Source of the DNA: Tubiluchus corallicola
Lineage: Eukaryota; Animalia; Priapulida
Reading direction: 5' to 3'
DNA length: 64,000 bases
Assembly (NCBI GenBank): GCA_030141605.1
Contig: JAQGDQ010000124.1
Location: forward strand, 62,001 to 126,000
Positions 14,008 to 45,885 of this stretch are shown here, in pieces. The notes below the pieces were generated by a model that worked only from the letters and a program-made list of their open reading frames with translations, had not been told where the DNA came from and searched no databases. Each line of letters begins with the position of its first letter. The stretch's first letter is position 1. The translations under genes were made by a program, and so were the position numbers.

Positions 14008-17000
14008 TTAAGTGGACAGCAAGTTCTGATATGTCAGTGCCTGCTCGAAGTTCTCTTTACCTGGGTTCGAATTCAAGGCTTCCTTTGTTGGTTCTAACAT
14101 CTCTTCGTTGTTCACTTCAATATCTTTTTTGTCAGCACCTGGTATATCGTCACCTTCTTCCGAAGGAGATCCGGTAACAGGGGTTATAAATAGTTGTGCT
14201 ATGGCATAGAGGCAGCAACAAATGATGGCGGCGATACCGAAACATCGAAACGTAATAGCACCTCCGTACGCCTCGTATATGAAACCTCCTATCAAACTAC
14301 CAAAACCTGAGCCTAAAAAATAGAATATCCCGGTATTATAATATTATATGTAAAAGATAATAATAAAACGAGGTATTACTGTTGCTTTTAGCCCTGTTAA
14401 ATTGTAGTTCAGGATTGTCTGTCATCTATCCATATACCACAAGCAAACATAATATTATTGATTTTCCATATACCACTACAGAACATGGCACAATAATGTT
14501 TAACACAAAAGAAAACACGTAAGTCGTGATACAAAGTTGGTGCAGCTTTACCACCTCAAATAGTTTACTAATGCACCATCAACAATTATTGTATAAAGGC
14601 AGTAATACGTGTCGTGGAAAGCAATGTTTTGCTATGAAACTCACTGGCAACAGTAGCTGTAGATACCAACGTGTTGTAAGCCTGAACATAATTCAGCTTA
14701 TCTCATCATGAAATTTCAATGGACATTACAAACCCATATGAATCAGCAGACATATTCTACAAAGCCACATTTAGCAACGGGTATAAATGCGTAGAATTCA
14801 GCAATATGAAATTTGAATACGAGTCAAACACTTTTCAAATACTGCTTACCTATTCCGTCAAACAAACCGGCGACGAATGCTTGCATAGTGGCCGCCGTTC
14901 CTTTAGGTGAGATGAGATTGCAATATGATACGGCAGTGGCATACATCAGCCCAAATGATGGCCCGTGAAAGAGATTCATTGCAAGTGCCCACCACGGATT
15001 TCTCATAAAAGAGAAGATGATAAATCGAGCACCATATGCCAAAAAGGCAATATAAAAGCATCTAACATGTCCTATTTTCTTTATCATGTAGCCAGAGATG
15101 AAAAAGAACGGTAATTCACATACAGTCTCTGCAGTTAAATCAAAACCGAACAGCAGTTCTGTAGCACCCAAATCACCTAGATACCACAAACTAAATGTTA
15201 TTAATGCTCCAAATTGCATCCCAAGTGCTATAACTGCAAGCAGAAATACAACTACAGCTGGCTTTCGGCAAATTTTAAACACATCTTTGGCAATATTTTG
15301 TGACTGGTATTCTACTTTTACTGTAAGTGTGAGATTAATTATAACCACTATTACCATAAAACCAAAATACAAATAAAAAGCAGGATTGAAGTTCATGTAC
15401 TCGGCATTATTTATCCGTCGAACTTCTGACATCACAATGCCAGTAATCGAAGCAAAAACACCCCATCCAAATGTGCCCCATAGTCTTTGCTTTCCATAAT
15501 CTTCATCCTTTTCACCAAGATACACAAATGTTATCATGTCAAGCATGGAAATATTTGACAAAAAGAATATTTTAGATAAAATATACAGTACAAGCAAGGC
15601 CCAGAATTCCCAGACTAATCGGACTCCCTTCTCAGACTGCCCCACGACGGCACATTGCAACATATCAGCCTTACATTTGACCGTGCAAAAAGCGAGATGG
15701 TTATTGGCATGTTCTACTGCATCACATATAGACGAAAAACTCCCTGCATCTCTTGGAGTAACTCTATAAGTATTGCAATATAAATCGGCAATTACATCTA
15801 TGGAATCTCCACTTGCATTTTTGCTTAAACTAACATTGTCTGTAACAGTATCAAAGTTTGAGGATGTGTTAAAAAGTTCTACTGCGTGCCCATTATCAAC
15901 GATGGGTTCAGAAACTAACAACTTAATATTCAACTCAACGTCACTCGTTTTTAAAGCAGTTCCATTTGCAGAAGAATTAAACACTGGACACACTAATTCG
16001 CATGACTGAGGTTCTGTCACTTTCAACAATATACAATCATGACAGTACAGCAGTTCAGCTGACAAACTGTCTTCTGAGCACTCTGGTGTAACCTGGTGGG
16101 AAAATCTATGGCGATGAATCGGTGGCACCAGCAAAATTGCCATGAAAAATGCTGTCATCAGAAATATGCTGACTAACAGGACCATTTTGTGCGCACGCAA
16201 GTAATCTGCCACTGCACCAACTAAAGGCTTGCCTAACACAGCTGTGAAAGGGATGATAGTGTAGATGATTCCAACCTCTAGTGGATTCCATCCTTCCTCC
16301 TTTAGGTAAATAGCAAGGAATGGGACGAGGCACGCTACACCTGTAAATGCAACAAAATAGTATTATAAACAAGAAACAAATATATAAGCAATTTAAGATT
16401 CATCAAAAAACGATTTCTCACAAAAATTAACTTTCAAAATGTTTTCAAAAGCCTCAAGATTTTTGTCGAGAGTCTTGAAGCTTCTGACCGTGGTATTGTA
16501 GGACAGTTAAAAACATTCAATACAAAAAGTATGAAAACAAAATTTATCTAGGTTTAACAGATAAACAAAGTATGACAACAAACGAAAGCAGGGTAAAACA
16601 TGACAATGACAGCTTCGATTGGTGCGATTTATATCATAGTGAGGATTTTTGTTACCATGCAACACAATGTAATGCAAAGCAATGCAATGCAAAATAATGC
16701 AATGCAATGCAACCAAATATAACACAATGTAATATAGCATATTGCAATTAATAATAATAAATTCTGTCAATGATATGATATAACCAAACAAGAAAAATTT
16801 AAACGATACCAATACTTTATTGATCTGGCCTATGCTACAAAATGCAATTACTAGCTAAAAGACAAACTAATAGAATTATAGATTAGTGGCGTAATTGCAT
16901 TCGTGTGGCAAGCTATATTGATCTGAGCAGTGGCGCAAGAATTACTGCTCGTTAATGAGGTTTCAGATTTACTGTGGGCAGCTAGCTGCTGTATGAGTTC

Positions 17001-19973
17001 ATGTGTATCCACTAACTTATAAAGATCTAACTTAAAACAAAAAAGTTGCATAAAAAGTTGAGTCTTTAACTGAAAAACATCAATAAGTATAAGAAGCTCG
17101 CACAACTGCATACATAGTTAAAATCATTTAATGAAAATTATGAAACCAATTGCAAGAATGTATTTACCAGTTATACAGAAACTCATATATTTTGCTAACT
17201 TATTCATTATAACCATAACTAGTCACAATCAAATTTTTGGCTATTTCTTCTGGTAAATACCAACAAACAAAATTAAACAGTTTGCAATAAATAATAACGG
17301 TTTATGCTGTTATCACTTTTCAAATATGCCATTCATTTGTATATATATATAATTGTATAATATATATATGTATAATATATATTAAAATTGCAGAGGTAAA
17401 ATTACACTTACATAAAGCCTGAAAGATAAAGCTTAAATATATATAGATATATATATATATATGCGTGTGTGTAATTTTGCAGCTTTATCTTTCAGGCTTT
17501 ATGTAAGTGTAATTTTACCTCTGCAATTTTAATACCTATAATATTATTATATAAGTTGATTTCTTTTCAATTGCTCTTCTAGTATCATACCAATAGATTC
17601 TTTCTGTGTTACTTACAGATGTGCACTTCTTGATTGACAGTGGATTCTAGAATGATCTGATACATCTCACCAAAAAATATCAGCATCTTTATTGTATCAT
17701 TGGTTTTGCCGATTTATAATACTTTAAAAAAAATACAGTGTCCGTTTCACGTAATGAGCGGCTACAGAAAAATGGCAGGTGTTGTGCTAAGTAAAAGATT
17801 TAACAGTCCAAGGAGACGATAACGTTCAGGTTGCTAATTTTAGACCTTCTCAACTACTTACAGAATACCTAGATTATGTCAAGAAGGTATTGTTCAGCAA
17901 TTCCTAGATTGTATTTTTCATTGCTCAAGATAAAGAATAAATGGCAGTGGCCTTAACACCAAAATGACACATCCTGCAAAACAGGAAACTAAATATTGTG
18001 ACCTGAATACAGCTCACAGATAATGTCGCTTATCCTGGTAGTGCATGCATTTTGACCAAGAATGCTGAGAAGTTAACTGAAAAATGACAAACTTCCAAGT
18101 CTGACACACTGACAAACACAATTAAAATACTGCTTAACAAACTAACAACAAACAGAACTAAAAAGTACAAAAGAACTCCTACAATAACTGAACCACCCAC
18201 TTATTTAATGCAAAAGTTGTGATTATTCTTACAACAATTTATTCTAGGGAAAAAATTTATTAATTTTATAATTACTGTGATTCGTTATAATGCTTAAACC
18301 AAACAATGCTTAGCCTGATAGATTAATAAAGTTTGAACAGCAAACTGATGTAAGACAGTAATGCAATCCCCAGGTTTATCTGCATTTGATCAATCACTCT
18401 AACACTCTTTGCTTAATTATGATAATCATCATCGTACCAGTTATGTCTATTGTAGAAATTGGGTAAACAGAATTCTAAAATTAAAGAAATCTGCCTTCAA
18501 GACAGGTAAACACAGCAGTAATCCTGTCTAGTAAAAACTAGGCATTGCTATGCCTAGAATGATAGCTGTAGTGACTTTTTCTCAAAATTTATCAAAGGAT
18601 GTTTATTGAACAAGCTCGCATTGTTAAAATAATATTGATGCAATGTTAAATTTGGGGTATAATAGTCGTAAATAAGTTAGCATAATTCGATTTGTCAGTA
18701 CAAATCATTGTCATTGTAAGACATTGTACTTTTAAGTTTTGTTTGTTATCAATTTGTACCGTATTTTAGTTGCATTTGTCAGTGTGCCACCCTGGGAAAT
18801 AAGCCATTTTTGCTTAATTTCCCAACGTTCTTGCCAAAATATGTGCACAACCAGGAAAAGTGACATTATGAAGTGAATCCACTTCACGCACTGTAACAAA
18901 AATTCTTGCATAATTTTTACAGTCTTTTTAATTTTTTTACAATTTCTAAGCAACACTTTAAGGACAGTAAACAATTAACAATTGATGATCTTGTTAAGTA
19001 CAATATATTGCAATATTTATGCACAAAACCCACTTTAATTTGTTTCCACAATTTTTTATAAATCCTGTAAACACTACTATACCACCAGTACACTACTACT
19101 ACATATACTACTATACTACACCACAATACTAGCTATAATGAATATTATGTTAGATATTGCAGAACCTATGTTGCTAAACAATTTGTTTCTTTCGTAGGTC
19201 CCAATGTTTGGAATTCTGTTTCTTGTAATATCAGAACAGTATCACGCCAACCTAGATTTAAGAAGGAGATGAAAACATATCTCTTAAATACATATTAGGT
19301 GGATTTGGTCTTCAACTTTTCTTTCCATATTGCGTTCACCACGTTGGTTGCCACTCACAGTCCATCCCTATATATATAAGTAGTGACTTAGCCTTTTCAC
19401 TGCATTTTCATCATTATCACCTCATCATTTTTTAAATTTTTCCTACAACTTTTAGCTTTTTTCTTCTCTTCTACTTACATTACTTACTTATACCCTAATT
19501 TTACCGTCGTGTCATCTCTTTTATCCTACCCCTAACACCTAACAACACACCATGCATTGATTGCAGTTGGGCTTTCCAAGTTTTAGCTTTTAGCTCAGCT
19601 GCAAGAAATTACATCATTTGCTCACTAACTGACTGCTCACTTCATAAGTAATTGCAATTTTGTTTTCAGTTTGTGTAATTGTATGTAATATATCCAATTA
19701 TGTAATTGTAAAGGTATTTTTATCTAATAAACAAATAATAATAAAAAAGGCTAATTTCATAGGAAAAATAACAAAAACAAGAAATAAATAGGAAAAACAA
19801 GTCACCGCATGCACTATTTGTCTGTCATAATAATTATATTTTGAAGAGGGTTGTTGTACAGATTAACCTAGTAGCAAAAACATAAAAAACGTTTACAAAT
19901 ACGTACCCGCATAAAAGAAAAAGTGGTAGCACTTAATAGGAAGAAGTTTCCTGTTCACTTGTCCGCACTTCAT
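14008..19973 (-). CDS. MFSD6: Major facilitator superfamily transporter, MFSD6-like (620 aa)
   Basis: Exons 19973-19907 (MKCGQVNRKLLPIKCYHFFFYA), 16340-14850 and 14312-14008; total 1863 nt, in frame, GT-AG. Family-typical motifs LLPIK..F, YGKQRLWGTFGWG, ELPFFF.SG, TAATMQ, and a large Cys/N-glycosylation-rich insert after TM3. Exact ortholog vs paralog not determinable. Confidence 0.88.
16657..16747. repeat. Degenerate (AATGC)n pentanucleotide repeat
   Basis: aatgcaatgc...aatgcaatgcaatgc; explains the spurious HCIAL-repeat ORF 16507-16812. Confidence 0.75.
17380..17534. repeat. Perfect 54-bp inverted repeat around a (TA)n-rich 47-nt loop
   Basis: 17380-17433 is the exact reverse complement of 17481-17534. 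Confidence 0.95.
19158..19748 (+). mobile_element. 5'-truncated LINE (CR1/L2-type) 3' end in MFSD6-like intron
   Basis: 19158-19298 translates CRTYVAKQFVSFVGPNVWNSVSCNIRTVSRQPRFKKEMKTYLLNTY*, like the GP..WN.L...IR......FK..LK..L C-terminus of CR1/L2 ORF2. Followed by a UTR ending in an AATAAACAAATAATAATAAAAAA tail. Confidence 0.65.
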
Positions 19974-20792: not shown

Positions 20793-21879
20793 TGCCAACA
20801 AACATATGTGATGCAAATGATTGTAACTTAGTTTCTATTTTATCATTATGTAGGACATTCAAGGACATCGGCAGAGTTGAAAGGTATATTCCGCTTCTGA
20901 CAATAAAATTTAATATTAAACACTTACACAGAAAGGGCTGCAATTTTGTCGACAGTTTATTTAAAATATGAAAGACTAAAGTGTTTGGCATAAAGCAGTG
21001 TACTGATACATGTGTTATTGCTGTAAGTCACTACACTGAGGTAAGAAAGAAGTTAGCATCTGAGATACATGAGCAGTTAGCATATGGCATCATCGATTTA
21101 GCGCTTAATTCTAGGTGTGTGATAGGTCTACACACATCTAGGTATGGCCATGACTAGACTGACCAGAATCGTTCATCTGGTGATAAATATGCTTGCACCT
21201 GATTACAAAAAAAAAACCGAATCAACAATGCTGTGGAGAAACAAAACGATATTAAACCATACAAGCACAGTGACCATGATAGACGCAGATAAGTTGAAAA
21301 CCAAAACTTCAGAATGTGTGTGTAAAATATGCAGTAACTGAGATAGGCCCATGAAAATACGGCATTGCAATAACAAACCCTTTATTAGTGATTTTTATAT
21401 TCTGTTTCACTTCAAGTATAATGTTATGTTTTGTAATTCGAAAACTTCTCTGTAGCTGCTCAAATGCCTTGTGCTTTACACACTGTTTAGCTTTCCTACT
21501 GAAACTTAACTTTTTATATTTTATAGTTGCATGTTGTTATAAATGTTAACTCCTAATAATGGTCTGCTACTCAATGGAAAGCGCAATTTTTCTAAAAGTC
21601 AAATGTTACTTTTCCCTTCAAGTATTAAATAATGTACCTTAATACTTCTATATGTTAAAACCCATGTCTATAAAGTGATATCTGGACTGTTAAATTTTTA
21701 CAAAATGTGGTAAGCACAGCCTGTGGCACTGCTGTTTATGATGATTTTACATTGACATATAGATTTGAGAACGGCACATGTTATTTATTCTGTGTAGTCT
21801 TTGGTGTTGGATAATTTTGAGATAATTGAACAATAAATGCTTGACAAAAACTATATGAGATTAAGACATTTCATCTGAG

Positions 21880-23960
21880 GTGCCAACTGGTTACAACATC
21901 AGTTAGAACAATGAGAAGAAACTTTGAACGAAAATTGTCGGAAGAATGTGGAAATAATCCTAAAGCATTCTGGGCATATGTAAATTCTAACTTATTGAAA
22001 AAAGAAGGAGTGAGACCCCTAAAAAGAGAGGATGGTAGTATTGCCACTACTAATCAAGATAAGACTAATGAACTACAGAACTTTTTCACATCTGTTTACA
22101 CAAACGAAGATACAAGTCAAATTTCTCAATTACTACCATTAAATGAACATAAGCTTGAAGTATGTAGCATCAGTGAATTAGAGTTTCGTATAAAAGTTAA
22201 AAATATGAAGGCTAATAAATCTATGAACCCTGATGGAATATATGCAAGAATAATTAAGAATAATGAAGATATCCTTATCAGTCCCATGCTACAGAGATTG
22301 AAACCAAAGTTTATCCAGTGGTGTATTACCACAGAGCTGGAAAATGGCCACTGTTTCTGCTATCCACAAGAAAGGTGAAAGAGACTTAGCAAAAAAATTA
22401 CAGACCTATGAGTCTGACATCAGTTGTTTGTAGAAGGAATACTAAGGGGTAAAAGGTACTAAGGGCTGCAACTTTATTACCGAACATAACCTCATTAGTG
22501 ACAGTCAACATGGCTTCAAAACTGGTAGATCTTCCATTATAAACCTATTAGTTTCACTTGAAGAATGGATGGACTTACTCGATAATAAAGGTGAAGTTAA
22601 GGTAATCTATTAAGATTTTTTAAAAGCGTTTGATCGAGTCCCCCATCTGAGGCTGCTCCAAAAATTTGAGTCATGTGGAATTTGCATACAAAACATGGAT
22701 TAATACACTCTTGTACAAATTAATTGAACCAACATATAAAAATGAATGAAAATTCGCTTTTTCTCTTATAATTCAAAACACTTTCATTTAATCGCTCTTG
22801 TAATTTCCCTTATATAATATAGTCCAGTGATTCTTTATCAGTTTCTCAACTCATTTTGCCATGAATTGCATCATGGTACCACATCTAGATGATGGCATCT
22901 ATCAGCTCCTGCCTGGTGGTACAAGTCGGTCTCTCACAAGCACAACTTAACAATTAACCACAAATTTTCAATTGGATTTAAATCCGAAGAGTTGCCAGGC
23001 TAGTACATTTTCGTGTTCTCGTTTGCAAGAAATTTTTGACAACTTTTCCCAAGGAACATCAGGGAAGATCTTTGGTATCCCTGGAATCCTTCTGTTTATC
23101 AGAACCGGAATACATTGCTGCAATCATACCAGTAAGAATATGCAAATTAGGCCAATTTATGTAAGAAATACTGTTTAGGGGGTTTGATAACGCGCAAGTC
23201 TCAGTTCAGGGCTGAAAAATACCATGAGGAGGGGAAGGAAAAATGCAGTAAAATCTATCAGTGGTTCAATTAATTTGCACAATGGTGTAGTTTTCTTTGT
23301 GACAGGAAGCAATGTGTAATAGCCAATGGGCATGAATCAGAATGGGCTAATGTCATCAGCGGTATACATCAGGAAGTGTCCTTGGACCTATTTTATTTAC
23401 TATTTACATGAATGATCAACAGCATGCTTAAATTTCAAAATCATATAAATAATGTTGTTAAACATAGAAGACTGATCTTTATCAAGCGTAGCTTTTCTTA
23501 TCTTGATGGATCGATGATGACCAAGCTATACAAGTTAATGGTTCACCCTATATTGGATTATAGTGATTTGATATGGAGTCCAAGTCGCCAAGACATGATA
23601 AGGAAAATTAAATATACAACGTCGAGCTACTAGACTCGTGCCCGCTGTTTCTCATTTATCATATCTTGCAAGACATAAGAGTCTGGGCCTTACAACTCTG
23701 TCTTAATTCAACAAGACTTAATTCAAACATTTCGTATCCTTAAAAGTACAGAAACCATCAACAGCAAAATATTTTTTCACCGACAGATACATCATGGTAC
23801 AAGAGGTCAATCCTACAAAATTAAGAACAGAACAGTTCCCAAAAGGTGGAGCAGGAGGGATACATTTGCAATTCGCGTAATTAATGAATGGAACATGCTG
23901 CCTGACACTGTAGTTCAAGCCTCTAATCCTGCCCAGTTCAAAATTCGTCTGAAAAAAACA
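21880..23960 (+). mobile_element. Degenerate CR1-like LINE ORF2 (reverse transcriptase) interrupted by a Tc1 element
   Basis: NPKAFWAYVNS, YRPMSLTSVVC, QHGFKTGRS, KAFDRVPH, then after removing the insert WINSFLCDRKQCVIANG...SG..QG(fs)VLGPILFTIYMND, then KLYKLMVHPILDYSDLIWSP and RVINEWNMLP. Frameshifts present; the YADD region is deleted. Confidence 0.9.
22706..23287 (-). mobile_element. Internally deleted Tc1/mariner (IS630-Tc1) DNA transposon
   Basis: 26-bp TIRs CACTCTTGTACAAATTAATTGAACCA / TGGTTCAATTAATTTGCACAATGGTG. TA TSD at 22704-5 and 23288-9. Minus-strand remnant PGNSSDLNPIENLWLIVK...TRQELIDAII (Tc1 DDE motif SPDLNPIE). Confidence 0.92.
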
Positions 23961-24350: not shown

Positions 24351-24667
24351 TAATTACCAATAATTACCTTGTATTCACAGTTGTACACTATACAATTCGT
24401 ATCGCCATCATGTTTGTGTGTGTAGTCACGTGACGAATTTCGTACTGCTTTATGCATTATCAGGGCCTAACTTAACAGGCACGTGACACACTGTTGCCTT
24501 AACCGCTTTTACGAAATAAAGATAAAACCTTTACTTTTATAATCTAATAATACTACAGTAATAAATAAAAATAATGGGCGCTATTACACTTTCGCACATC
24601 CTACTTTTGTCTAGTTTATTACTCGTATAGTGTACAACTGTGAATACAACGTAATTATTGGTAATTA
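24351..24667. repeat. 43-bp inverted repeat (1 mismatch) enclosing a GTCACGTGAC palindrome
   Basis: 24351-24393 vs reverse complement of 24625-24667: 42/43 identical. GTCACGTGAC at 24425-24434. Confidence 0.9.
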
Positions 24668-32400: not shown

Positions 32401-35400
32401 CCCAGTACAAGTGGGTGGTATAACCAGGTTTGACTGTTAACAACACTGGCGTTTGTAAAAATGTTATGAACTAACAGAAGCTAATGCACTGTAACTTGAA
32501 AATTACAATTATGAAAAATTTATCTTCACACTATATTTTAAATAAATAACAAAACAGGCTAAACAAAAGCACTGACTTACTTCCCCAGTGGCAAAGTCTG
32601 GAGGTTCCTTAGGAGGGTATTTCTTTGGCTGATCGAAGGCTATTTCCTCCATGAACCACTTGAAGGATTTGCACTTTAGTTTTTCTCTCAGGTTCTTCTG
32701 TTCGGTTATGTTTCCGGGATCAAGGTCGCGATAATGAGGGCGCCGCATGTATAAATAGTCCTTGTACTCGTCCATCCAGACTTCCGCAACTCGTTTATAA
32801 TTCTAAATAGTTGCAGAAAACATTGACAATTAAAAGCATTTGCTGGCAATCTTTTCTGATTACGGTTTCAGTGTTTACAGGTTGTCCGAAATTAATATAA
32901 TTAGTAGCAACTACCAATTTTAGTTCAATTTTGAGACATTTATACAGGTCACAAAATTTCCAATTTATTTAGTTACTGCAACTGTAATTGAAAAACTTTT
33001 CCATTGTAATTGAGTACACTCAAATGTAAACAAGCACAAATCTCAATCAAAATGGTACATTTATAAATTTTATCAACAGAAAAAATTTTGCAATCCAAAT
33101 ATATGCTTCAGTAACATTTAACAACAAAAGTGCTTACCTGCTCATAAAAAATTACAATCAGCTGATAAAATCAACTTATAAGCAAAAGGGTTAATTTTCT
33201 ACAATTATGTGCAACCATTAGTAGAACAACACCAAGAAGGAACAAAGAACAAGCTTACTCTGCCTACAAAGTCCCCAATGCCTGGGTTAGGAAAAGGTGC
33301 AAACTTGCGATAGATGTGCCCGACTCGAGAGCAAGGTGCATCAACCATCTCACCCCTACACTGCCAGATCTATAGAAATGCAAGCAGAAGTTTTTAGTTA
33401 AAAAACAAAAGCTTGAAAAGCTTGACGCTACGTCACCATGCTCTCGAAGAGGCCACTTGGTGAATAGGATGTTACCAAAATGCAGCTCCAAATTAGCAGG
33501 TTATTTGTATGAAAAGTGGTGGCTAAAGTTGTAAGATCTCAGCCAGTTTAACTGATCTGAATCTCTCTGCCATATTAATTCTGACACCGATGAAGCTTTT
33601 TGCCAAGTTTTAGATCTTCAACTGATTAGAAAGTTACTTGTAACTACTTGCTCTAACTTTATCTGCACAATCTATGTACTGTACGGAGCAAGAGTAGGTC
33701 AAATCTCTTTACTGATTTACTTTTGAAGCAACTAAAATCACATTATGGACCCTATTTGATATGTGTTACCCCATTTTTTCAAATGTATCAAGTAAGACTT
33801 GAAGAAATATAAAGTAAGCATTAATGTATTTTTGAAAAAGAGGAGTAAGAAGTACAAAGCTAGCCTTATTAGAACAGCAACAGAACCAAATCGAACTTGC
33901 AACTGGAATTTTTCTTCGACCTTCAATTTTTCAATGTTTTATGCAACATGTCCACTCATTTTTTCCCTTATTTAGTCGCAGTGGCTTTCGTTGAAAGGCG
34001 ACTACTTAAAAACTAATTGTCTACCTGCTATGTCATACTATCTATTTAAATCTTGCTTCTAACTCTTGCTACCTTTCAAGTGGCAGCTACATTTAGTAGA
34101 AAAATATCTTAACAACTACGGCTTACAATTATATAACGCATAGTGCACAAGACACTGTTTACAGTAGTATCACAGTTAGTTTAGGTTAGAGAGATCGAAA
34201 AATTCCTGCTGAAAGACTAAAAGTGAGATAAGATTTACTTCTAAAAAAGACATTGTGATACTGCTGTTACGTTGTTAATGCTACAACTAATAGTGATGAA
34301 TGATAAGTATACAGAAGATTAGTAAGACAGTTAAAAGGTGGTGTGCATTGTTAGGTATTTAGGATAGATTTGGGCAAGGCACTTACTCTAGTAATGAAAT
34401 CTCCAAGTTCAGGAGGATTAGGTATAGGAGAAAATAAGCGATAAACATGGCCAATTCGAGAGCATGGTGCATCAATCAATGCACCATGACACATCCAAAT
34501 CTACGAACATACAAATATCTCATTAGCGATAACGAGTTCTGAGAAAAATAATAATTGTTTCTCGGGAATTTTTAACACAGCATGACACTAAAATGTTTTA
34601 AGCCATTTATCATTATAATTACTATACTAGTGTTTTTATGAAGTCAGAATTTAATTAAACTAAAAACTCAACTGTACAAAAAGTTGAGAGTACATTGATT
34701 TCTGTGTGGATTTTGATATGACACACCCATGCTCTCCAGCGGGCCAGAAGAAAAAAGTACAGAGAGAGAGAAAGTAAAGAGTTAAAGGAAGAAGTGAAAG
34801 TGAAGCTGAAGCAACAGTTCCATTTCAAAAACGAAAACTGTTGATAAATTAGTGTAGAGGTGATTCCATTGTAATGGTTCATACTGAATTTAGGACTAAT
34901 ACAAAGCAAGTGAAGTGAGTAACAGATGTTCCTCGTTCTTTTGTCATTTCTTAGCTGACTGACACTAAGCTATTGTCCCAGAATCCAAGGCAACAAATCT
35001 ACATTTGATTCTTAATATAAGTGCTATGTAAAACTTGAAGAATGGTGTGGTTGGTTTGTGTATGCTGACTGAGAGAGTGGCCAGCCACACTTACTCGACC
35101 AATAAAATCTCCAATAGCAGGAGGGGCTCTAATGGGAGAATGACGGTATATGTGGCCAATTCGAGAGCAAGGTGCGTCAATCATTTTACCATGGCACATC
35201 CAAACCTATGAACACAATAACGTAAGTTTTCACAAGAACCATGCAAGATGTGCAAAAGCTGTACATAGATGCTACAACTACCGATGCTACTACTGATAAA
35301 TGGTTGACCAGAAAAATCCCTCTAACTAAATTCATAGCCCTTTATTATGGTAAAGGCATTTGTAAACGAGCCCTCCACTGTTTCTCTAGGAATGACAGGT

Positions 35401-38400
35401 AAAAACCACTAAAATTGGCAGTGTTTCGCTCACTGCTAGAACACCAACTAGAAACACCATCTTAGTGGCACTTGGGTTGCAAATGTATAACTTTTTGAAA
35501 GGAGAAACCAACTCACACGGTGATGTGGGTCTCTTTTACGATCTCCTTTACTATTTACAAACACCTTTACCAAGATGAAGGGTTACAACTTAATTTGGGG
35601 GAATATTTCTTCTGGACGACCCTGTAGTTTATCAGAAACAAGTGACAAGTGTTAGATCAGAATACCCCACCAGAGGGAGACAGCATTGCGCTGTTAACTC
35701 CACTCACTTTCCACAGAAAGTTTCCATGCTCCCGAGAGGAAGCAAATGGATTAAATGATCTATAAACATGACCAATGCGCGAACACGGAGCATCCATTAT
35801 ATAACCATGACATTGCCAAATCTAAAGAAGTATATAGCAAAAATTCGACAGCTTATAATCATTTGCATTTAATCACATAGAGTTTCGATTTTAAAAACTC
35901 TTAAACACGTAAATACAGTCAGGTACATTGTTCAACAAAGTAAAACATTTAGCAATTTCTTGCTAAACTGAAGGCTTTTACTATCATTATTGACTAGAAG
36001 AATGATACGTTTAATTATTTAACTTATTCTCAAAATTATTTGTTGACAAAGGAATAAGCCTGCAATTATGAAATTATCCAAACCTGATTATTGTGCATCT
36101 ATTCTATCAAGCTATAATTATTACACTGAAAGATAAATATCTATTAATATACAGTCTGTAAATCCTTACATTTATTTAAATCAGTCAATTATTTATATCA
36201 TATCTTCTGATAGCAACAACACCATCAGAAATAAACATCATATTACCAAGTTTGAAATACAATAAAATTGCAAGTTTTCTGTTTAAAAATTTCGAAAGAT
36301 CTCCCAAAACATGTTACTTTGCCAGAAGATGCAAAATGTAATAATAGTAACAGTACATTCTGAAATATCTGATTATTGTACAATTATGCAAAATGACATA
36401 TTTACTAGATGCGAAACCAGCATTTACCAGTTCACAAACGCAAGTGAATAAATAAGTCAATGAAATTATGTGCACATTTTACCTTGAAAGATAATTCGTA
36501 CTGCTCTCCACCCCAAACATCCAAACCAGGGTCATAGCCACCAAGTTCCCAGAAAAAGGACCTGTCTATGGCAAATAATCCTCCAGCCATTACAGGACTC
36601 CTACAAGCAGACAATATGATGTAAATTTTAATTTGAGCTGTTAATAAATTAAATTAAAGTATGAACCCGACTTTCTGCCAAGAACACAAACTAGTCAGAA
36701 CCTCCACTTGCTTAAACACAACAAGTATGATGATGTTGCTTATTTATATATACCTCCATAGGTGTTCGCACAACCACATGAAGCATCTAATTGAACCTCT
36801 ACTAAACCAGATAAAGCATGATAATTGCTTATGTTTGCATAACAGCGGATTTTATGTAGCATTCAAAGGTAAGTATTGACTGAAACTTTGGAATATTACA
36901 CACAACGTTTTAATAATCAGGTGTAAATATTTCAAATGCATCTAATTACATGTATGTGCTAGCATGCACACATTTTCATGCAATAACTTACTTGAAAGGC
37001 TGCGGCATGTTTACTAAATCTTCTTGTAACAACGGGAGTCGTTTGTAGTAGAATTCCCAGTCAAAAGACCCCCTAGCACCCTCGTCCTGAGCTCGATATG
37101 CAAATGTTTCATAGTCAATCACATCAATAAATGGACAGACAGCTGTACGTCGGTTTACAGCTATAGGATCTGAAAGAAAATTTGTACAGAAACTGCAAAG
37201 TAGCATTCAGATCTGGAAAAAAACTGTGAAAAGTCATTGTACAACAAAAAATACGGAAATTATTAATAGCAGCAAACAGAAAAATAAAAGTTGTAAATGT
37301 ACTGCAGGGTTAATATATTGCAATTAATTATTGGAAATCAAGCTTGATTGTCGCTTTACTTCATACCTTGCACATACCTTAATCTATCGAATAATCTTAT
37401 TGTCCATACAGATAATGTACGTCACAAACAATATGCTATGTAACACAGAATAGATAGTTACTGAACTTCATAATTTTGATTTTGGTCAACTGACAAAGAC
37501 TTTATGAAGAGGCTTATAATCATAGCCGCAAAATAAGCCGGGACACACCGATCCTTGTTTTTGATGAAAGCCGAAGATAAACAATTTTTCCCAGTTGGTA
37601 TGAATGTACCAAGTTTGATGGAAATGGGATCAGTGGTTTCAGATGCACAATGTAAAGAATTTGTATAAACAAATCTCCTCACTTTTTGGGTACAATGAGG
37701 AGAAATTGGAGATAAAAAGTAGAAATGACTAAATATAATATTGAAAATTATGCAAAGCATAACAAGTTTATTGTACCGATAACAAACTATGCTATAAAAA
37801 TGTATGCAAAGCATTCTTAGTTTTTGCAAAAAGTACTTTTAGACACAGAAAGGTACTTTGTATAAAAGTGGAAATCTTTCATGCCAGGCAAGTCAGACAA
37901 AAGATGTTTTTCTTTCATTCGTTTTACCATTAATATATTGCACAACACAAGTACAAATTAAACGCAAGAAAGCGAAAAACGAGGTTATTTAATATAACTA
38001 TTAGCACATTACACTTAGTGCATTATTGATTACATCATAATAGATGACTTTTTTTATTTACCTAATAATGGAGGTAACCAGTTGATATTAGCTTCACAAT
38101 GTGAATCTAGGAAGATCAATACATCACCAGTAGCTGCCTTTGCTCCTAACAGACGTGCTCGTATTAGACCCTCTCTTTTCTTTGCTCGCACCACTCTAGC
38201 CTTTGGAATGTTTTCTTTTAAATAGTTGTCTAAGAAGTCTTTTAAAAATTCTAAATAAATACAAAAATAATTACAGATAGTTAAGTAATAAGAATTTGGG
38301 TTCATCGCCTTCACCACGATCGACTCAATAAATCTCATGAATATATGAATTAAAGAATAAAGCTTTCTGGTTAAGTTAATTTACATTCACAAGTCATATA

Positions 38401-41400
38401 AAAATGGTGACTATACACTATACATTAAGCAAAATCTATTTCGAAACAATAAGACCTTCATAAACCAAAATACCACTCAGTAGAGCTCAGACCTCCAGCA
38501 AGGCCTGCAAAGTACAATTCACTACTACACAGTTGCTTAAGTTAAAATGCCACAAATTGTTCTGACCAATAACAATGAAAACATAACTCAATGGCATAGG
38601 TAACCATAGAACCTTTGAAACATTAATTGACGTTTAGACAGGTATCATCTCCATTGTCTACCGTAGTTTTAACTTTCTTAGCATTAGTGCTGCATTTGGT
38701 CTTCCGGCAGTCTTAAGGCACATTCAGACTAGTGAGTTTTGTCACCAAGTTAATTTGCCAAGTAACTCACAAGCATGTTGAGACTAGAAAGCAAGACTTG
38801 CTGTGAGTTACTGCGAGTCACTCTCTATTCACTGCGAGAAGTGTCGAAAGTAACTCACAGAGGCGCTCACACTAGACAGTAACTTGCAGGAAATTAACTC
38901 GCAGCAACTGTCGGAGAGTTTGGAATAAATTATCGGCAGGAACTTGCAAAGCAGTTCACAATGCAAGTTTGCTGTCAGAGAGAAAACTCGTGACAGAACA
39001 CTTGCTAGTCTGAATGCACCTATTAGGAAAGGTGAGTTAACCCCAGCTTGAACCCTTGCATCCGTTTGGGAAGTAGGGTAGGAGATTAGCAGCGGAAACC
39101 TGAAACTGCCCAGGTGAATTTCACCCTGATGACCACCACATTTATGCATTTTTCTATATTTAACATTTTATTTGATACAAAACCCAAGATATGTGAAACA
39201 ACAGTAAACAATTACAAATACCAATTACTCTGTATCAACGCATTTAACTGTAACCAATCGTAAACAGTGACTACATGGCTATTTTAGTTTAGTTTATTCA
39301 ATTCAATCATCCCAATAATGTTTCAAAGGTAACCAACCATTTTATGTGTTGTTTTTACTGCGACTATCATTTCACGTTGTAGCCTGTGCACCTATTTGTA
39401 TTTGAAATGAAAACTAAGCACAGGAAAACTGGCGCACACAAAAATACTTCACTCCAATGCATGAAACCCCATAATATTTATTGTACAGCATCATACGTTC
39501 CTAACCTTTATTGCTAAAATCATCTACTAAGATTATCTCTTTTATAAGGTGTGGTGGAGATCTGTTAATAACACTCCATACAGTACGTAGGAGGGTTGAA
39601 ATATGTTCGTTATGGAATGGTACAACTATACTAGCATCAGGTAGTTTCTCTAGGTACTTCATTGTCTTGCAGCTAAAAGAAAATCAAACAAAAACGTTCA
39701 TACATCATTTTTCAGTTGCAACTGCTATCAGGTTAGTAACTACTTATATGGATGAGCTGTACCAATTCACTGATCAAGCCAATGCTCAGGATTATAATTA
39801 GTGCAATGTTCAAATTAACATTTTTTACTTCTTAAAAATTTGCCCTTAACTCGGTATCCACTTATACAAAACAAGAGATATTTAGCTAAATATGAAAGTG
39901 TTAGAATTTTAAACAAATTTTAGCAAAAAGCCATCTTAACATATGGGCATGCTTTGCCCTGAGGGACGCATAAGCATAGTGGCCCCATAGTAATCCATGT
40001 ATGCTGTGGCTTGCTGTCAATAAATAAATACCATGCTATACTAAGCTATAAATATTTGTTATTATGTTACAAGTGGACATTTGCATTAGTCAAACATTTG
40101 CTGTACAGCACGTTTTTTAATGTTTAAACACTGATTTTGTTGGAAGCACCAACATTATGTTTATTTTATTGACCATTTACATTTTTATTCTTGTGAGTGG
40201 TTGTGTAGTTAGGAGCCCCAGTACACTGTTCTGCCCGGGGGCAATAATAGTGTTAAGGCGGTCCAGAAAATCGCAATTGAACAACTTTCATCACAATTGA
40301 TTTTAGACCATATGTAATACGGCATGTCAAACAAATGTACAGGATTCCAGTATACATTTTAAAAGTCAACAGTATCTTCCTTTTGCATATGACAGTTGTA
40401 CAGTCAGATGTCAATGTGTATTCACCATTAACATCTGAGGTGATATTAAATTTCGTGACAAAATACGGTGCCAACATAATTCTGAACAGCATAGATGCCG
40501 AACTTTAATCTGATAACCTATATCTATTTAATTATAGGAAATTAAAAAAGCCTCTAAGTGTATGTATTGCATACAGATGTAGCTAGCATTTAATAAACTT
40601 CACAAAAATCTTTATAAACTTGAAATTAAGAGTTGCAAACACTAAGATTAAAACGGTCTGGTATAATTTTTATACAAAGTTCATGTATATGGTACACATA
40701 GCAAATGCACAATATCCGTACCTGTACAGAAATTAAATAACATGCTAACAAAGTCAATATGTAGATAATATAAGAAAGTTAGATAATAAAATTTACATTA
40801 CAAAGGCTTACCCCGTATGCCGTATGTCAGCTATAGACCGGTTCAATGGTATTTTGTCACTGGCAAGAGCATTAAATCCATTAACTTTATACAATTCCTG
40901 CTTCTCAGACTCGTCTGACGGTGATAAAACCAAAGCAACACCATGTTCCCCGGGTCCTGGGATAAAACACAAATGAACACAAACAAACTGATTTTAAAAT
41001 CATTCAAACATTTATTTTTAAAATTTACAAAAAATGCTCAGTTTTTTAAAGGAGAAGAAAAGAGAACTTTAAAGTACATCCCAAAATCCCAAAAACTATC
41101 CAAACAAAGTTATATTACATGGAAAGCTTCATTTCAGCTGACAAAATCCATGAAGGACAAAAGCTCTTGTGAAAAAAAAATTGAGACTTTTGGGCGCTTT
41201 GTCTTCTTTACAATTATTTTACTTGGCATAATGATTACCTGTTTGAAAGACTTATATAATTGGAAAACAAAAATTCTTTAAAATTTAAAATATTCGCACA
41301 ACCTAGTAAAACAGCACAACATTACCATCCCAGTGTGCACCACTGTTTCACCAAAAAACACATTGTTGTCCTTATCGACTATATAAAGTAATTAAAACTT

Positions 41401-44400
41401 TTGCTTCGTTAGCAAAAACTGTGCTACGAATGCTATGATTCTTTTTCAAACCTTTCACAATGTTATCTAAACTTATTTCAGACAACTTGCCATTAAAATG
41501 GTTGTACTTAACGACCATCGCAGGAGTTTAAACTTACATGTTTACACAGCATTACTGCTAACACAAGCTTTGTATTCAATAAGACAGTATGTCAGTGATA
41601 CAAAATCTCAAAAAGATTTTTTAAATTTTATTTATGAAGAGTGTTTCTTGTGCTTTAACAAAACATTTTGTACACAAACCTTTAAGGAAATGAGGAACAA
41701 CAGTTGCTACATTGTACGTTAATTCTGATAAATGCCTACAGCAGTAAATTAGGTTAATTTAAATATGTTTATACTGAAAATTGAAAAGCAGCAAAAATGT
41801 CACTGAAAATGAATGTAAATATGAAATGTGAGACATTCGTGCATTTGCTTGATAAAAGCACATTTTCATATCGGAAAGAAATACACGTGAAAAAAGAATT
41901 GTAAACATAAAAAAATGAAAAACCATTATCAGATGCAGTCAGCCATGTTGCATGCAGTCACATGCATTTATGATAAGAAACTTTGAAATACAAAACTAAA
42001 CCATATTAAATAAATATTGAAGTCTTTAACACGTAATCTACACTAGACATTTCTTATTTTAGCGGTGAAAGATCAAAAGCAACTGGACATGGCATCACGC
42101 TGGACACATAAGCAATGTTAAGCTCTCCAAACTTCCAAAAGTTTCGCTTTTCCGCAAGAATAAACAAACACAGGACAAGAAATAACTGTGAGGACTCTCA
42201 CGCAGGATGTCCTGCAGTTAGAAGACTTACTCCTAGTCTTACAGAGTTTCAGAACCCTGGTCATGTGGTGCTACAGTCAGTGAAAATGCTAAGCTGGCTG
42301 CGACACTCTGACAAGCAAAATAAAAATGAAAACATTCCGAACCTACAGCTGTCCAAAAGTAAGTAAAAATAAAATATAAAATGTCACATCTTAAGCAACA
42401 AAACGCTTGTAAGCACACAAGTTTGATATTACTCTATTTTAATCAAGTGTCAGACAAAAAGACAGCTGCCCTTTTACATAAATACATAAAACCATGACTC
42501 TCAGCTACTACTGAAATATAATCTGTTAAAATCCAAATAAATAAAATGCCACTTTTCAACTTTCGAGGACGTTAACCCCAAACAATCTTAATCTAATACT
42601 TTCATTAGCGCAAAGAAGTTCTAATTCTGTTTAAAATTACCAGGCCTGTAAAATAGATCGGCAGATGGCCTGCAGATTATAAGATAAAGATCGATGCCAC
42701 ATTGCAGCATGCTTCTTGCTAACAAGAATAATGGTCCATGTAAGACAATTGATGCCTCGCTTGGCTGGTTGGGTTGTGAGACAGACAAATACAAAAATAA
42801 CTTAAGAAGCCACTAGAGGAAAACTGAGCACTGCTAATGTATTTTGTTTAGAACAGGTCTTGAAACTGGTCAAGCTCATCGTGTAGAATGATCAAGTTAC
42901 TATTGTTACTATGGTCGGTACATTTGCAGGAATGTACATTCACTGCAGTGAAGTTCAGGAACTAGGCAACCATACTGCATTTATTAAACAATGCTAAACT
43001 GCTTTAAAATATAAAACAATTGATCTGCATGCAAAAGAAAGGCTTTGAAAGAAACAGTAACACTTTTTTGCATTATCTTAATTTAAATACTGTAAACACA
43101 AATTTTTTGTGAACTTTTATTTTTAAATTGCGAGAGTATAAACATTTTTGACAATTTTGTAAACATTTTATTTTACTCCCCAATTTCTTTTTATTGTGGG
43201 ATTTCCAAATATTTTTAAGAATCTCCAGAAAATTATCTGGAAAGTTGACAAGTATAGCACACCGGTTCAATACCACTAACAAACTCGTCTAGCTCAATAG
43301 TAATAACAGCTGAATAATCAAGCTATCAAGTAAAACAATAAAAAGCCAGCCAACTTGTCTGAACCTACAATTGGGTACAAATGACTTCAACATATTTGCA
43401 CAGGCCGAGGAGTTTCTATTTTGCAAGAACTGTTTACATTAGTTAACAAGACCACGAGGTGCCGCAGAAATGAATTGATTTATTGCTGGCTTCAAGCTAT
43501 TTGATATAATGTCGCTCTCATTTCCGGGCTGCTGGCAAAAACAGCTAGAAAACAAGACTGTCTTAGTTGATCAAGAAGCCGAAACAAACACGGAAATGAG
43601 TAACAGACGAGTATTAAACTGAAACCATTTGCACTGTTGCTGAAGCCATTTGCACTGTTGCTGCAACATTAATTATGACAACCGGTTCAGGCAAACCAAC
43701 ATTAATGTCTTGAGAGACATCCATATATATTTTCAGACATTCTCACACTTCAACAAAAAGCTCTTTCGCAGCGCAAAAAATGCCAAAATTTTAATTAACT
43801 AGCTAGTACATCGCAAAAAATATGTCACTAACAGTAAGAAACCAGAATTTTTTGATCATTATCAGTCAAGCTAAAACCCAGTTTGCTGAAGAAGCAAACT
43901 TTGAAAAACTCAGAACTAATCGGGATTTGAACTAGAAAATTGGAAGTTAGCATACGGCGATGATGCTAACTTATGACTGCACCAAATAAGTGATGGATTT
44001 AAGTAGTAAACAGTTATTTTTCTCACATACAAAGGCCTAACGTATATATGCTTTTCAGTTTTGAAAAGTGAACTTTTTGTGTCTACATAATACTGTTATA
44101 ACTATGAAATGCCAGTTATTAGCATAATGAAATTAGTTACTAAACAATCACCTTCTCTCTTTTGTTCTTGTTCAATAGCTTTGTAATCATGCCAGTCTAT
44201 TCTTTTCCCACCAAATTTTGCATCTTGAAACTTCAGCACCTGAGAAGAAGAGGAAAATGTATGCATATAAATTTGGATTGTGAAAAACTGTAACGTTTTG
44301 TAGTATAGCATTCGACTTCTGTACAACAAGCATGAACCACTAAGCCATGCAGGCACAAACTACTATTAAGCAGAATTTCCAAAGAGAGACAGGTTCATCA

Positions 44401-45885
44401 TACTTTTGAGAGTCAGCAAATTTTAAAATAATTTGAAAACTATGAAATGAAAAACTGGTCTATTTACCGGGCAGTAGTCTAGTACCTTTGCAGCAGTAAT
44501 TTAGATTGAACACAGCCACATTATTAGTTTCTTTATTAATTGTCCCAGTTCTGGCTGAGGACCGACCAAAAGCTAGTTTAAACATATTAACACTTACATC
44601 TCACATATCAAATTAAATGCACTTTTAATGTCAAGTTTTGCAAAACTAGCATTTAATCAAAGAAGCACATTAATTTTTTACAGTCGACGTATTATCCAAA
44701 TACCTTTACACACAGCAAATGAATATTTTATTACTTCTACGTAATGCAGTTTGATAATACTATTAAGTGATACAAAGGAGAAGCATGGCAGCAGTGAAGC
44801 CAGTGAAACATTGGTTACATTATATACAGAGCTGCAAATGATTTAAAACCTCTATACTGCACTGCTTCTGTAGACAATGAAAACTGCAAAGCTAATGCAA
44901 TGACTGTAATTTTTAAGTTTAGTTAACAATTTTAAATGATCTTTAGGTACATTAAGGACATGTGCTAACTGTCAAGTCAGGAGACTAACTACTTCTGATC
45001 AAAGACAACAAATTACTAGGCAGACATTAGTTAGACCAGACTGATAGCTTAAATACAATACTTCAGCTAGAGTTTTAATAGATGATTTTTTATAGTAAAA
45101 AGAGTCACACCCATTGTCATTATAAGAATTAGTATTGACAAGAAAATGTAACAAGGAGCAAGTCTTAGACTAATTTTTTACTTTGTTTCCATGCATATTT
45201 TTTAAACGGCTTGGCACAAGTCACAATACAGCAGTCAACTATTTTACGAAAGGTGCATAGTGCAACGAGACCAAAACCTAGTTCATTCTCAAAAATAATT
45301 GACTAAGATGAGTTTTCGAACTGGCACGGGTACCACAGAGCTTTTCATTTGGATGTGTATACTTACATATTCTCTACAGCAGGCAAAGTAAAATAACAGG
45401 ACAGCAGTATTGCCTGGTACAACCACATAAACATGATTTTCCTGACAGTAATTCAAGCATTTACAAACCAGGTATAGCAGTACTTAACTTCTGTAGCAAA
45501 GCACACACAGTGACTACTCATGTGTAAGCACATTATGTCGTAACCGTGTTCAAGATTACCTTATTTCTATGCAGATCTAAGGAAATTTTTTACACAGGTA
45601 TAAAATTTCAGACAAGACAATGGCAAATAACTACCTATTAATTATACGTTGACATACCTTTGAATATTTGTCACTAAGCACTTCACCATTCTGAGATTTC
45701 TCTGGTAATATGTTCTGAGATTTAGATTTAACTGCCTCATTGCCTTTTAGCAACTCCCTTAGCTGGAGTGTGTTTGCATGATCAGGGAATAGCAAACGTA
45801 ATGTTAGAGGTCCAAATGTCAAGAGCACAGTCAAAAAGATGAGCCACTTTATTAACGTCACCGTATTTCTCCTCATTGTGTGCAT
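29454..45885 (-). CDS. GALNT10: Polypeptide N-acetylgalactosaminyltransferase, GALNT10/pgant6/gly-10 subfamily (617-618 aa per isoform)
   Basis: Exons 45885-45658, 44239-44152, 40956-40812, 39672-39506, 38250-38062, 37169-36992, 36600-36483, [one of 8a-8d], 32802-32581, 31691-31581, 30406-30263, 29606-29454 (TAG). All GT-AG and phase-compatible. N-terminal TM anchor, [21 protein letters not shown] (DxH), [34 protein letters not shown], and a ricin-B lectin with NQQW/TQKW. Confidence 0.95.
33259..33369 (-). CDS. GALNT10: GALNT alternative exon 8d: [37 protein letters not shown]
   Basis: ttctatag|ATC...AGA|gtaagc, 111 nt, phase 0-0; closest to the arthropod pgant6-type loop as I recall it (KF.PFPNPG.GDF.G.N). 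Confidence 0.92.
33434..33456 (-). promoter_or_regulatory. Intronic element antisense to GALNT exon 8 core (candidate selector / splicing-regulatory pairing site, upstream of 8d)
   Basis: Plus strand CACCATGCTCTCGAAgaGGCCAC equals the sense sequence of exon 8c CACCATGCTCTCGAAttGGCCAT, so in the pre-mRNA it is complementary (15 bp + 6 bp). Function inferred. Confidence 0.6.
34387..34500 (-). CDS. GALNT10: GALNT alternative exon 8c: [38 protein letters not shown]
   Basis: ttcgtag|ATT...AGA|gtaagt, 114 nt, phase 0-0; CTAAT branch-point-like motif about 25 nt upstream of the acceptor. Confidence 0.9.
34727..34746 (-). promoter_or_regulatory. Second intronic element antisense to GALNT exon 8 core (upstream of 8c)
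   Basis: Plus strand CCATGCTCTC-cagcg-GGCCA; same two blocks and same 5-nt spacing as exon CCATGCTCTC-gaatt-GGCCA. Confidence 0.5.
35095..35205 (-). CDS. GALNT10: GALNT alternative exon 8b: [37 protein letters not shown]
   Basis: ttcatag|GTT...CGA|gtaagt, 111 nt, phase 0-0, open frame. Confidence 0.9.
35293..35635. repeat. Long imperfect foldback in the intron between exons 8a and 8b
   Basis: 35293-35366 pairs with 35554-35635; inner core TGGTAAAGGCATTTGTAAA vs TGGTAAAGGTGTTTGTAAA; several sub-hairpins in the loop. Confidence 0.8.
35708..35821 (-). CDS. GALNT10: GALNT alternative exon 8a: [38 protein letters not shown]
   Basis: ctttag|ATT...AAA|gtgagt, 114 nt, phase 0-0, open frame. Confidence 0.88.
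38717..39020. mobile_element. MITE, possibly PIF/Harbinger-derived, in GALNT intron
   Basis: TIR GGCACATTCAGACTAGTGAG / CTTGCTAGTCTGAATGCACC (16/20); TAA/TAT flanks; internal AACTCGC/AACTTGC repeats. Confidence 0.65.

Follow-up and report, generated by a model that had tools for sequence, protein, structure and literature searches.

A probable four-way splicing switch of the active-site loop in a priapulid GALNT10/pgant6-type GalNAc-transferase, with two antisense intron elements as candidate blockers

In Drosophila, alternative splicing swaps the catalytic flexible loop of PGANT5, a polypeptide N-acetylgalactosamine (GalNAc) transferase: the isoforms PGANT5A and PGANT5B differ in residues 398-457, which include the loop, their use is tissue-biased, and on mucin repeats the choice of D or K at residue 419 changes kcat/KM by a factor of 1.6-2.7 (PMC12776162, a preprint). 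In Drosophila PGANT9A/B, an alternative exon changes substrate preference in a tissue-specific manner, but it lies in the lectin alpha subdomain and not in the catalytic loop (PMC6115407). Exons 9a/b/c of C. elegans gly-5 and 8a/b of gly-6 have been shown experimentally to be mutually exclusive, with lengths of 102-111 nucleotides (nt) that are multiples of three (PMC4165533), and GALNT13, Pgant5 and gly-5 have been described as recurrent tandem-exon genes (PMC9741552). We focus here on a 64,000-nt stretch of the genome of the priapulid Tubiluchus corallicola (assembly GCA_030141605.1, contig JAQGDQ010000124.1, positions 62,001 to 126,000), hereafter the window, in which a GALNT10/pgant6-type gene on the minus strand carries four tandem copies, 8a-8d, of the exon that encodes this loop. 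The cassette is probably a working either-or specificity switch of four tandem-duplicated exons. A sequence-only reading of the window had proposed such a swap and had rightly placed the PGANT9 switch in the lectin domain; a catalytic-loop switch, for which it could confirm no precedent, had in fact already been described in PGANT5A/B.

The four exons form a tandem-duplicated cluster of adjacent homologues, alike in length and phase and all with intact splice sites (Table 1), and their positions on the minus strand, AG/GT ends, 0-0 phase and lack of stop codons, all given by the sequence-only reading, hold when checked on the sequence. All four lengths are multiples of three. Pairs of copies share 59-74% of their DNA, with 8b closest to 8c at 74%, and tblastn between copies gives E values of 1e-10 to 1e-15; no fifth sense copy of exon 8 was found in the whole window. 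Conservation is concentrated, as had been noticed before, in the first half, where 13-16 of the first 20 residues are identical between copies, against 4-11 of the remaining 17-18. The model built here has 12 exons running from 45876 to 29454, the seven upstream of the cassette total 1104 nt, which sets the cassette in phase 0-0, and an open protein of 614-615 amino acids (aa) results with any of the four copies inserted. To judge from its sequence, the product is a polypeptide GalNAc-transferase of family GT27, T10/pgant6 type, which starts mucin-type sugar chains. The GT27 architecture is present (N-terminal membrane anchor, GT-A domain, C-terminal ricin-type lectin domain), and the metal site is complete, with DSH (DxH) in exon 5 and the third manganese (Mn) ligand, a His, in all four alternative exons. 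The orthologue in Priapulus caudatus matches Pfam PF00535, PF02709 and PF00652 (the GT-A and ricin-type lectin domains), and the nearest solved structure, GalNAc-T10 2d7i, came first in both sequence and fold comparisons.

Set beside PGANT5A/B, as the preprint describes it, the window cassette works in the same way; it arose separately, however, in a different subfamily, and is both wider and more strongly diverged. The likeness is that splicing swaps the catalytic flexible loop in both and that the segment starts at the same homologous residue: PGANT5 S420 corresponds to GalNAc-T1 A349 and exon position 1 to T1 327, so that by T1 numbering PGANT5 398 is the first residue of the window exon and PGANT5 419 its position 22, which is S, H, L and K in 8a-8d. 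PGANT5A/B, on the other hand, belongs to the GalNAc-T1 subfamily and is a two-way switch of 60 residues, including a helix-turn-helix, whose loops differ at three residues, whereas the T10/pgant6-type cassette is four-way, exchanges 37-38 residues with the loop divergence given above, and ends at the helix start without extending over the helix-turn-helix. By analogy with PGANT5A/B, the isoforms described here would likely prefer different acceptor peptides.

Comparison with Priapulus caudatus provides the main evidence that the copies are maintained. Its protein is the nearest homologue, with 70% identity over the whole length, and the two proteins group as sisters (100/100) in a 32-row tree, 31 rows of which were taken from a set of 183 proteins. 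Four of the five members of the Priapulus cluster are RefSeq isoforms, X1-X4, which differ only at residues 379-416, that is, only in the same exon of the orthologous gene; 8c, 8a and 8d types are each represented once and the fourth model skips the cassette (Table 1). An unused exon would not outlast such divergence, and by this protein comparison 8a, 8c and 8d, three of the four copies, are under selection and conserved as separate single-exon isoforms. These three isoforms already stood in RefSeq, without comment, and had been missed by the sequence-only reading. Among 431 proteins compared, 388 carry the exon motif; of 392 motif matches, 247 are 8d-type, one is 8a-type and one 8c-type (both Priapulus), and 143 are none of these. 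The prevalence of the 8d type marks 8d as the ancestral loop, and many single-exon open reading frames (ORFs) of other animals end at the same donor, which indicates that the exon is an old symmetric module. The non-8d loops look limited to priapulids within the reach of our searches. No 8a-, 8b- or 8c-type loop was present in the best 150 of 599 profile-search matches, and no swapped loops were found among the listed members of nine of the first ten clusters and of twenty further clusters. Word-index searches for full-length proteins of 8a type and for short ORFs of 8a, 8b or 8c type returned no candidates, which is a weak result, as isoforms hide inside 90% clusters. Two apparent cases of loop variation were rejected: the wasp-like fragments P0420 and P0421 differ throughout and come from other species, and isoform pairs from Tubulanus and Anabrus differ elsewhere in the protein. 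Two Anopheles albimanus records, P0184 and P0334, hold two GalNAc-transferase catalytic domains each (1017 or 1236 aa) and are perhaps neighbouring genes fused by annotation.

Copy 8b has the least comparative support. No 8b-type loop occurs among the 388 motif-bearing proteins, where the best reaches 10 identities, or among the five Priapulus cluster members, and this, together with its closeness to 8c, could mean that the working cassette is three-way and that 8b is a lineage-limited copy of 8c, rarely or never used. We nevertheless think this unlikely, as 8b is open, has AG/GTAAGT ends and, at 26% DNA divergence from 8c, keeps the invariant W, C, G, DAPCSR, GH, YR, P, G and F, and its codons pair with both of the antisense elements considered below.

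The position of the exon in the fold explains what a swap would change. Human GalNAc-T2 binds Mn through Asp224, His226 and His359, its flexible loop is Arg362-Ser373, and its peptide contacts include Phe361, His365, Ser373 and Phe377 (PMC4432651). Exon 8d aligns to residues 342-372 of this enzyme and 320-348 of T10, His18 of the exon falls on His359, in agreement with the earlier assignment of the GH His as third Mn ligand with the loop after it, and exon residues 21-32 fall on the loop; all of the features just named, except Asp224 and His226, therefore lie within the alternative exon. Structure models of the loops, which had been suggested as a check, are now available for two types: the 8a-type and 8c-type proteins of Priapulus were modelled with AlphaFold2 from 72-row alignments. 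The fold is kept in both, with a mean predicted local distance difference test (pLDDT) score of 88.2 and 89.1, respectively, and the top fold match is GalNAc-T10 2d7i at a root-mean-square deviation of 2.2. In these models the alternative exon covers strand 385-397 and the loop and reaches into the first part of helix 413-425. The isoforms are thus likely identical except for a core strand, the Mn-binding His and the lid of the active site, and we infer from the core strand that two exon copies together would not fit the fold. The loop block 401-410 reaches a pLDDT of only 65 in the 8a-type protein (80 in the 8c type), the least confidently modelled part of its catalytic domain, and a skip-all model lacking the Mn-ligand His, which would be inactive, exists in Priapulus X4. 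One could thus argue that the alternative exons tune or switch off activity and do not set acceptor preference, with unusual loops, 8a above all, closing poorly and skipping giving a dead enzyme. We hold this to be improbable: in the 8a and 8c loops conservation holds at the level of single residues although the proteins of the two animals differ by 30%, which suggests specific contacts, the Mn ligand is kept in all four exons, and in the available text on PGANT5 loop changes shifted preference and did not act as an on/off switch (PMC12776162).

Alternative use of the copies is in part seen directly. Run X2, guessed to be RNA and carrying the same species label, consists of contigs only; among the 8 of its 10 aligned records that are listed, two joints, 33369-36483 and 34500-36483, have CT..AC ends and join exon 7 directly to 8d and directly to 8c. 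At least 8c and 8d are therefore used as alternatives after exon 7, which makes two of the four copies joined to the common exon, with 8a added through the Priapulus model alone. The alternative use proposed by the sequence-only reading is thus supported by two joints and, in Priapulus, by three of four loops as separate isoforms. At 88% likeness the run does not cover 8a, 8b, exons 5, 6 and 9 or the downstream joints, which is evidence neither way, and its contig depths of 76 and 36.7 are not usable for ranking exons. None of the four full-length Priapulus models has two copies and one has none, and one exon per working message is probably the rule. Several points weigh against this account of the cassette. 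First, the RNA nature of run X2 is a guess, and its three exon contigs, 93-98% alike to the window (2/110, 3/86 and 8/113 letters differ), perhaps come from another population or species. Second, its 8c contig stops inside 8c at 34415, so that a message may also include 8c and then 8d. Third, the Priapulus RefSeq XP records are automatic predictions. Finally, isoform X4 skips all copies, and the exactly-one rule is thus not absolute.

If one copy is to be chosen, something has to enforce the choice. Nonsense-mediated decay, steric hindrance and U2/U12 incompatibility are ruled out by the 3n exon lengths, by cassette introns of 661, 502, 594, 1017 and 456 nt from exon 7 to exon 9 and by GT-AG ends throughout, and some other enforcement is therefore needed; the steric solution of gly-5 9b/9c and gly-6, whose introns are under 40 nt, is impossible here, and those genes are other paralogues (PMC4165533). 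RNA pairing offers two described models. In human ATE1, the intronic element R3 competes for R1 and R4 and silences either exon 7a or exon 7b (PMC7797038). In Dscam1, a docking site pairs with selectors and intron-exon balancers bias the choice (PMC12962786, PMC6071210), and duplication of one stem arm has been proposed as the origin of such pairings (PMC6071210). The window holds two antisense elements in the cassette introns, A and B, overlooked by the sequence-only reading. Element B was found with a DNA profile of the exons (nhmmer E 0.0095; match 33416-33458) and element A, at about 34750-34712, by a duplex scan. When 15,911 windows, drawn from the two strands of the 64 kb, serve as background, A and B take the top two places for the 5' half of each of 8b (-44.8 and -41.5; next window -35.1), 8c (-48.2 and -40.0; next -35.1, which is a hairpin of 8c itself, 10-11 bp at 34488-34463) and 8d (-44.8 and -39.0; next -37.4). 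Element B beats 300 of 300 shuffles for 8b, 8c and 8d, 69 of 300 for 8a and 52-282 of 300 for eight constitutive exons. The actual codons of 8b, 8c and 8d also give stronger pairing than synonymous recodings, which match it in 3, 2 and 10 of 400 cases for A and in 3, 0 and 20 of 400 for B; the codons of 8a show no excess (251 and 207 of 400). The mismatch to the exons falls at one shared position in A and B, suggestive of a common origin.

In the mechanism we propose, A and B would each bind one of 8b, 8c and 8d through its coding 5' half, and the bound exon would be silenced, being masked and having one of its splice sites enclosed in a loop. As there are two blockers and three targets, one of 8b-8d would stay free in every non-crossing arrangement; there are five such arrangements, and the corresponding states are predicted at -479 to -494 kcal/mol, whereas leaving the cores unpaired gives -468. 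Folding in transcription order may place A on 8b and then B on 8c, leaving the ancestral 8d as default. As in ATE1, an intronic element between exons is complementary to more than one copy and there is one blocker fewer than exons; the ATE1 targets, on the other hand, are intronic and lie over 3' splice sites, which are themselves paired, while the window targets are coding, about 22-55 nt inside the exons, with splice sites predicted to be looped in and two blockers for three exons (PMC7797038). As in Dscam1, competing RNA pairings, including intron-to-exon ones, would operate in a tandem exon cluster; in the accounts available, however, one upstream docking site activates the chosen exon there, whereas the window elements are interspersed antisense copies of the repeated exon (PMC12962786, PMC6071210). 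In the 25 longest inverted repeats, out of 139, no flanking docking site that pairs with intronic selectors was conspicuous, and the 3' half of 8a, which resembles the elements, was rejected as a third blocker, its recoded controls equalling it in 20-150 of 400 cases.

Within species, the first 20 codons of the copies look homogenised, with DAP in all four window exons against DTP, DTP and DIP in Priapulus; among window exons CHG occurs in 8a-8c only, and the loops instead follow orthology. From the codons, the within-species likeness of the first halves looks like gene conversion or co-evolution with A and B, and a gene-conversion test picks out one of six exon pairs at P 0.026, uncorrected. 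The same data could fit a cassette that is real but in which splicing proteins and the strength of the splice sites direct the choice, A and B being neutral inverted scraps and the shared codons a product of gene conversion, and we regard this as a serious possibility, if one that falls short of being probable. In its favour, besides the homogenised first halves, among which 8c matches its paralogues at 13-16/20, 8a is managed without any element and for the B-8b duplex the opposite strand comes close in stability (-44.6 against -44.2). It has more difficulty with the fact that, of the 64 kb and both its strands, the two elements fall on the transcribed strand and within the cassette. All eight element-exon duplexes are, moreover, more stable on the transcribed strand, with 12 G-U against 3 A-C pairs, although 8 of the 12 come from 8a, and three substitutions inside helices (runs X1 and X2) keep their pairs, a weak point given 40 listed rows with 141 further differences. 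The blocker mechanism in turn has to face several results. An equilibrium ensemble of the 8b-8d region places 0.94 on A-8d plus B-8c, freeing 8b, that is, it masks 8c and 8d, the two exons seen spliced, and a plain equilibrium model thus fails. The second element on 8d (-39.0) is barely ahead of background (-37.4). Exon 8a has no such element, with neither A nor B in its top 7 windows, and its choice or silencing falls outside the A/B model. Finally, codons shared among exons could stem from gene conversion. On balance, that A and B choose among 8b-8d is close to an even call, leaning slightly to the doubtful side, and the full proposal, a priapulid four-way lid switch in which two antisense maskers choose among 8b-8d and synonymous codons co-evolve with them, is tentatively held and somewhat less likely than not.

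Two further pairings lie within the cassette. The long stem in the 8a-8b intron scores z -8.0 as transcribed and z -5.9 for the opposite strand; 2 of 398 background windows reach a comparable folding stability, and the window contains no further copy of the stem, which may be an old decayed inverted-repeat element or may matter for the cassette. A weaker local pairing joins 8b to the intron just past its donor (35092-35048, minus strand; -29 kcal/mol, third of 602 windows) and also appears in the predicted fold.

Table 1. Exons and elements of the GALNT10/pgant6-type gene in the window, and the Priapulus caudatus isoforms compared with it
Feature	Position or accession	Strand	Details
Coding exon 1: ATG, transmembrane anchor, stem	45658..45876	-	26/73 aa identical to Priapulus orthologue
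Exons 2-4	44239-44152, 40956-40812, 39672-39506	-	AG/GT and open frame
Exon 5, DSH metal-binding motif	38062..38250	-	gene model
Exon 6	36992..37169	-	gene model
Exon 7, ends ELSFK, phase 0, constitutive upstream exon	36483..36600	-	donor common to both RNA joints
Alternative exon 8a	35708..35821	-	114 nt; donor GTGAGT; AG acceptor; no joint seen
Long stem, 8a-8b intron	35305..35615; arms about 35610-35554 and 35366-35310	-	-110 kcal/mol
Alternative exon 8b	35095..35205	-	111 nt; donor GTAAGT; AG acceptor; no joint seen
Antisense element A	34712..34750	-	8b-8c intron; complementary to nt ~22-55 of 8b, 8c, 8d
Alternative exon 8c	34387..34500	-	114 nt; donor GTAAGT; AG acceptor; joint exon 7-8c
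Antisense element B	33420..33458	-	8c-8d intron; 50-90 nt ahead of the acceptor of 8d; matches 8c perfectly at 15/15
Alternative exon 8d, ancestral loop type	33259..33369	-	111 nt; donor GTAAGC; AG acceptor; joint exon 7-8d
Exon 9, constitutive downstream exon	32581..32802	-	gene model
Exons 10-12, lectin domain and stop	31691-31581, 30406-30263, 29606-29454	-	Pfam PF00652 on orthologue
Priapulus isoform X1	XP_014664811.1		8c type; loop 15/18 identical to 8c
Priapulus isoform X2	XP_014664812.1		8a type; loop 17/18 identical to 8a
Priapulus isoform X3	XP_014664813.1		8d type; loop 17/17 identical to 8d
Priapulus isoform X4	XP_014664815.1		cassette skipped in frame; third Mn ligand absent

Elsewhere in the gene, high-copy repeats occupy intron positions 38276-39397 and 41081-41641, by depth in run X1. 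The window also holds a Major facilitator superfamily gene with one 512-aa open stretch (14008-16362, minus strand; Pfam MFS_1_like, E 1e-77), an exon of a Piezo channel gene (57823-58296, plus strand; Pfam Piezo_TM1-24, E 3e-36) and a 177-aa frame (21845-22378, plus strand) that by eye resembles a fragment of a LINE (long interspersed nuclear element) retroelement and has no Pfam match. Long inverted-repeat pairs at 18020-18869 and 24351-24667 (151 nt at 76%; 43 nt at 98%) are probably small transposon remnants.

The idea of a loop switch was already in print; what is new here is the pair of antisense elements A and B as candidate blockers. We found no literature on this gene or on priapulid GalNAc-transferase splicing, in a coverage that lacks most subscription papers and the supplements of PMC9741552 and PMC12776162. 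Three loops have stayed almost unchanged across 30% protein divergence and, taken together with PGANT5, the same exon start has been duplicated independently in two subfamilies. How GalNAc-transferase isoenzymes choose acceptor sites without a consensus motif is an open question, and four natural loops on an otherwise identical enzyme isolate the contribution of the loop better than a comparison of paralogues. If the proposed control by A and B is true, it would carry the blocker principle of ATE1 over to a set of several exons targeted in their coding sequence and provide a compact, countable N-minus-1 rule for mutually exclusive splicing; if the switch itself is true, this priapulid gene would offer four natural loops on a single scaffold, from which one could read how O-glycosylation specificity depends on the loop.

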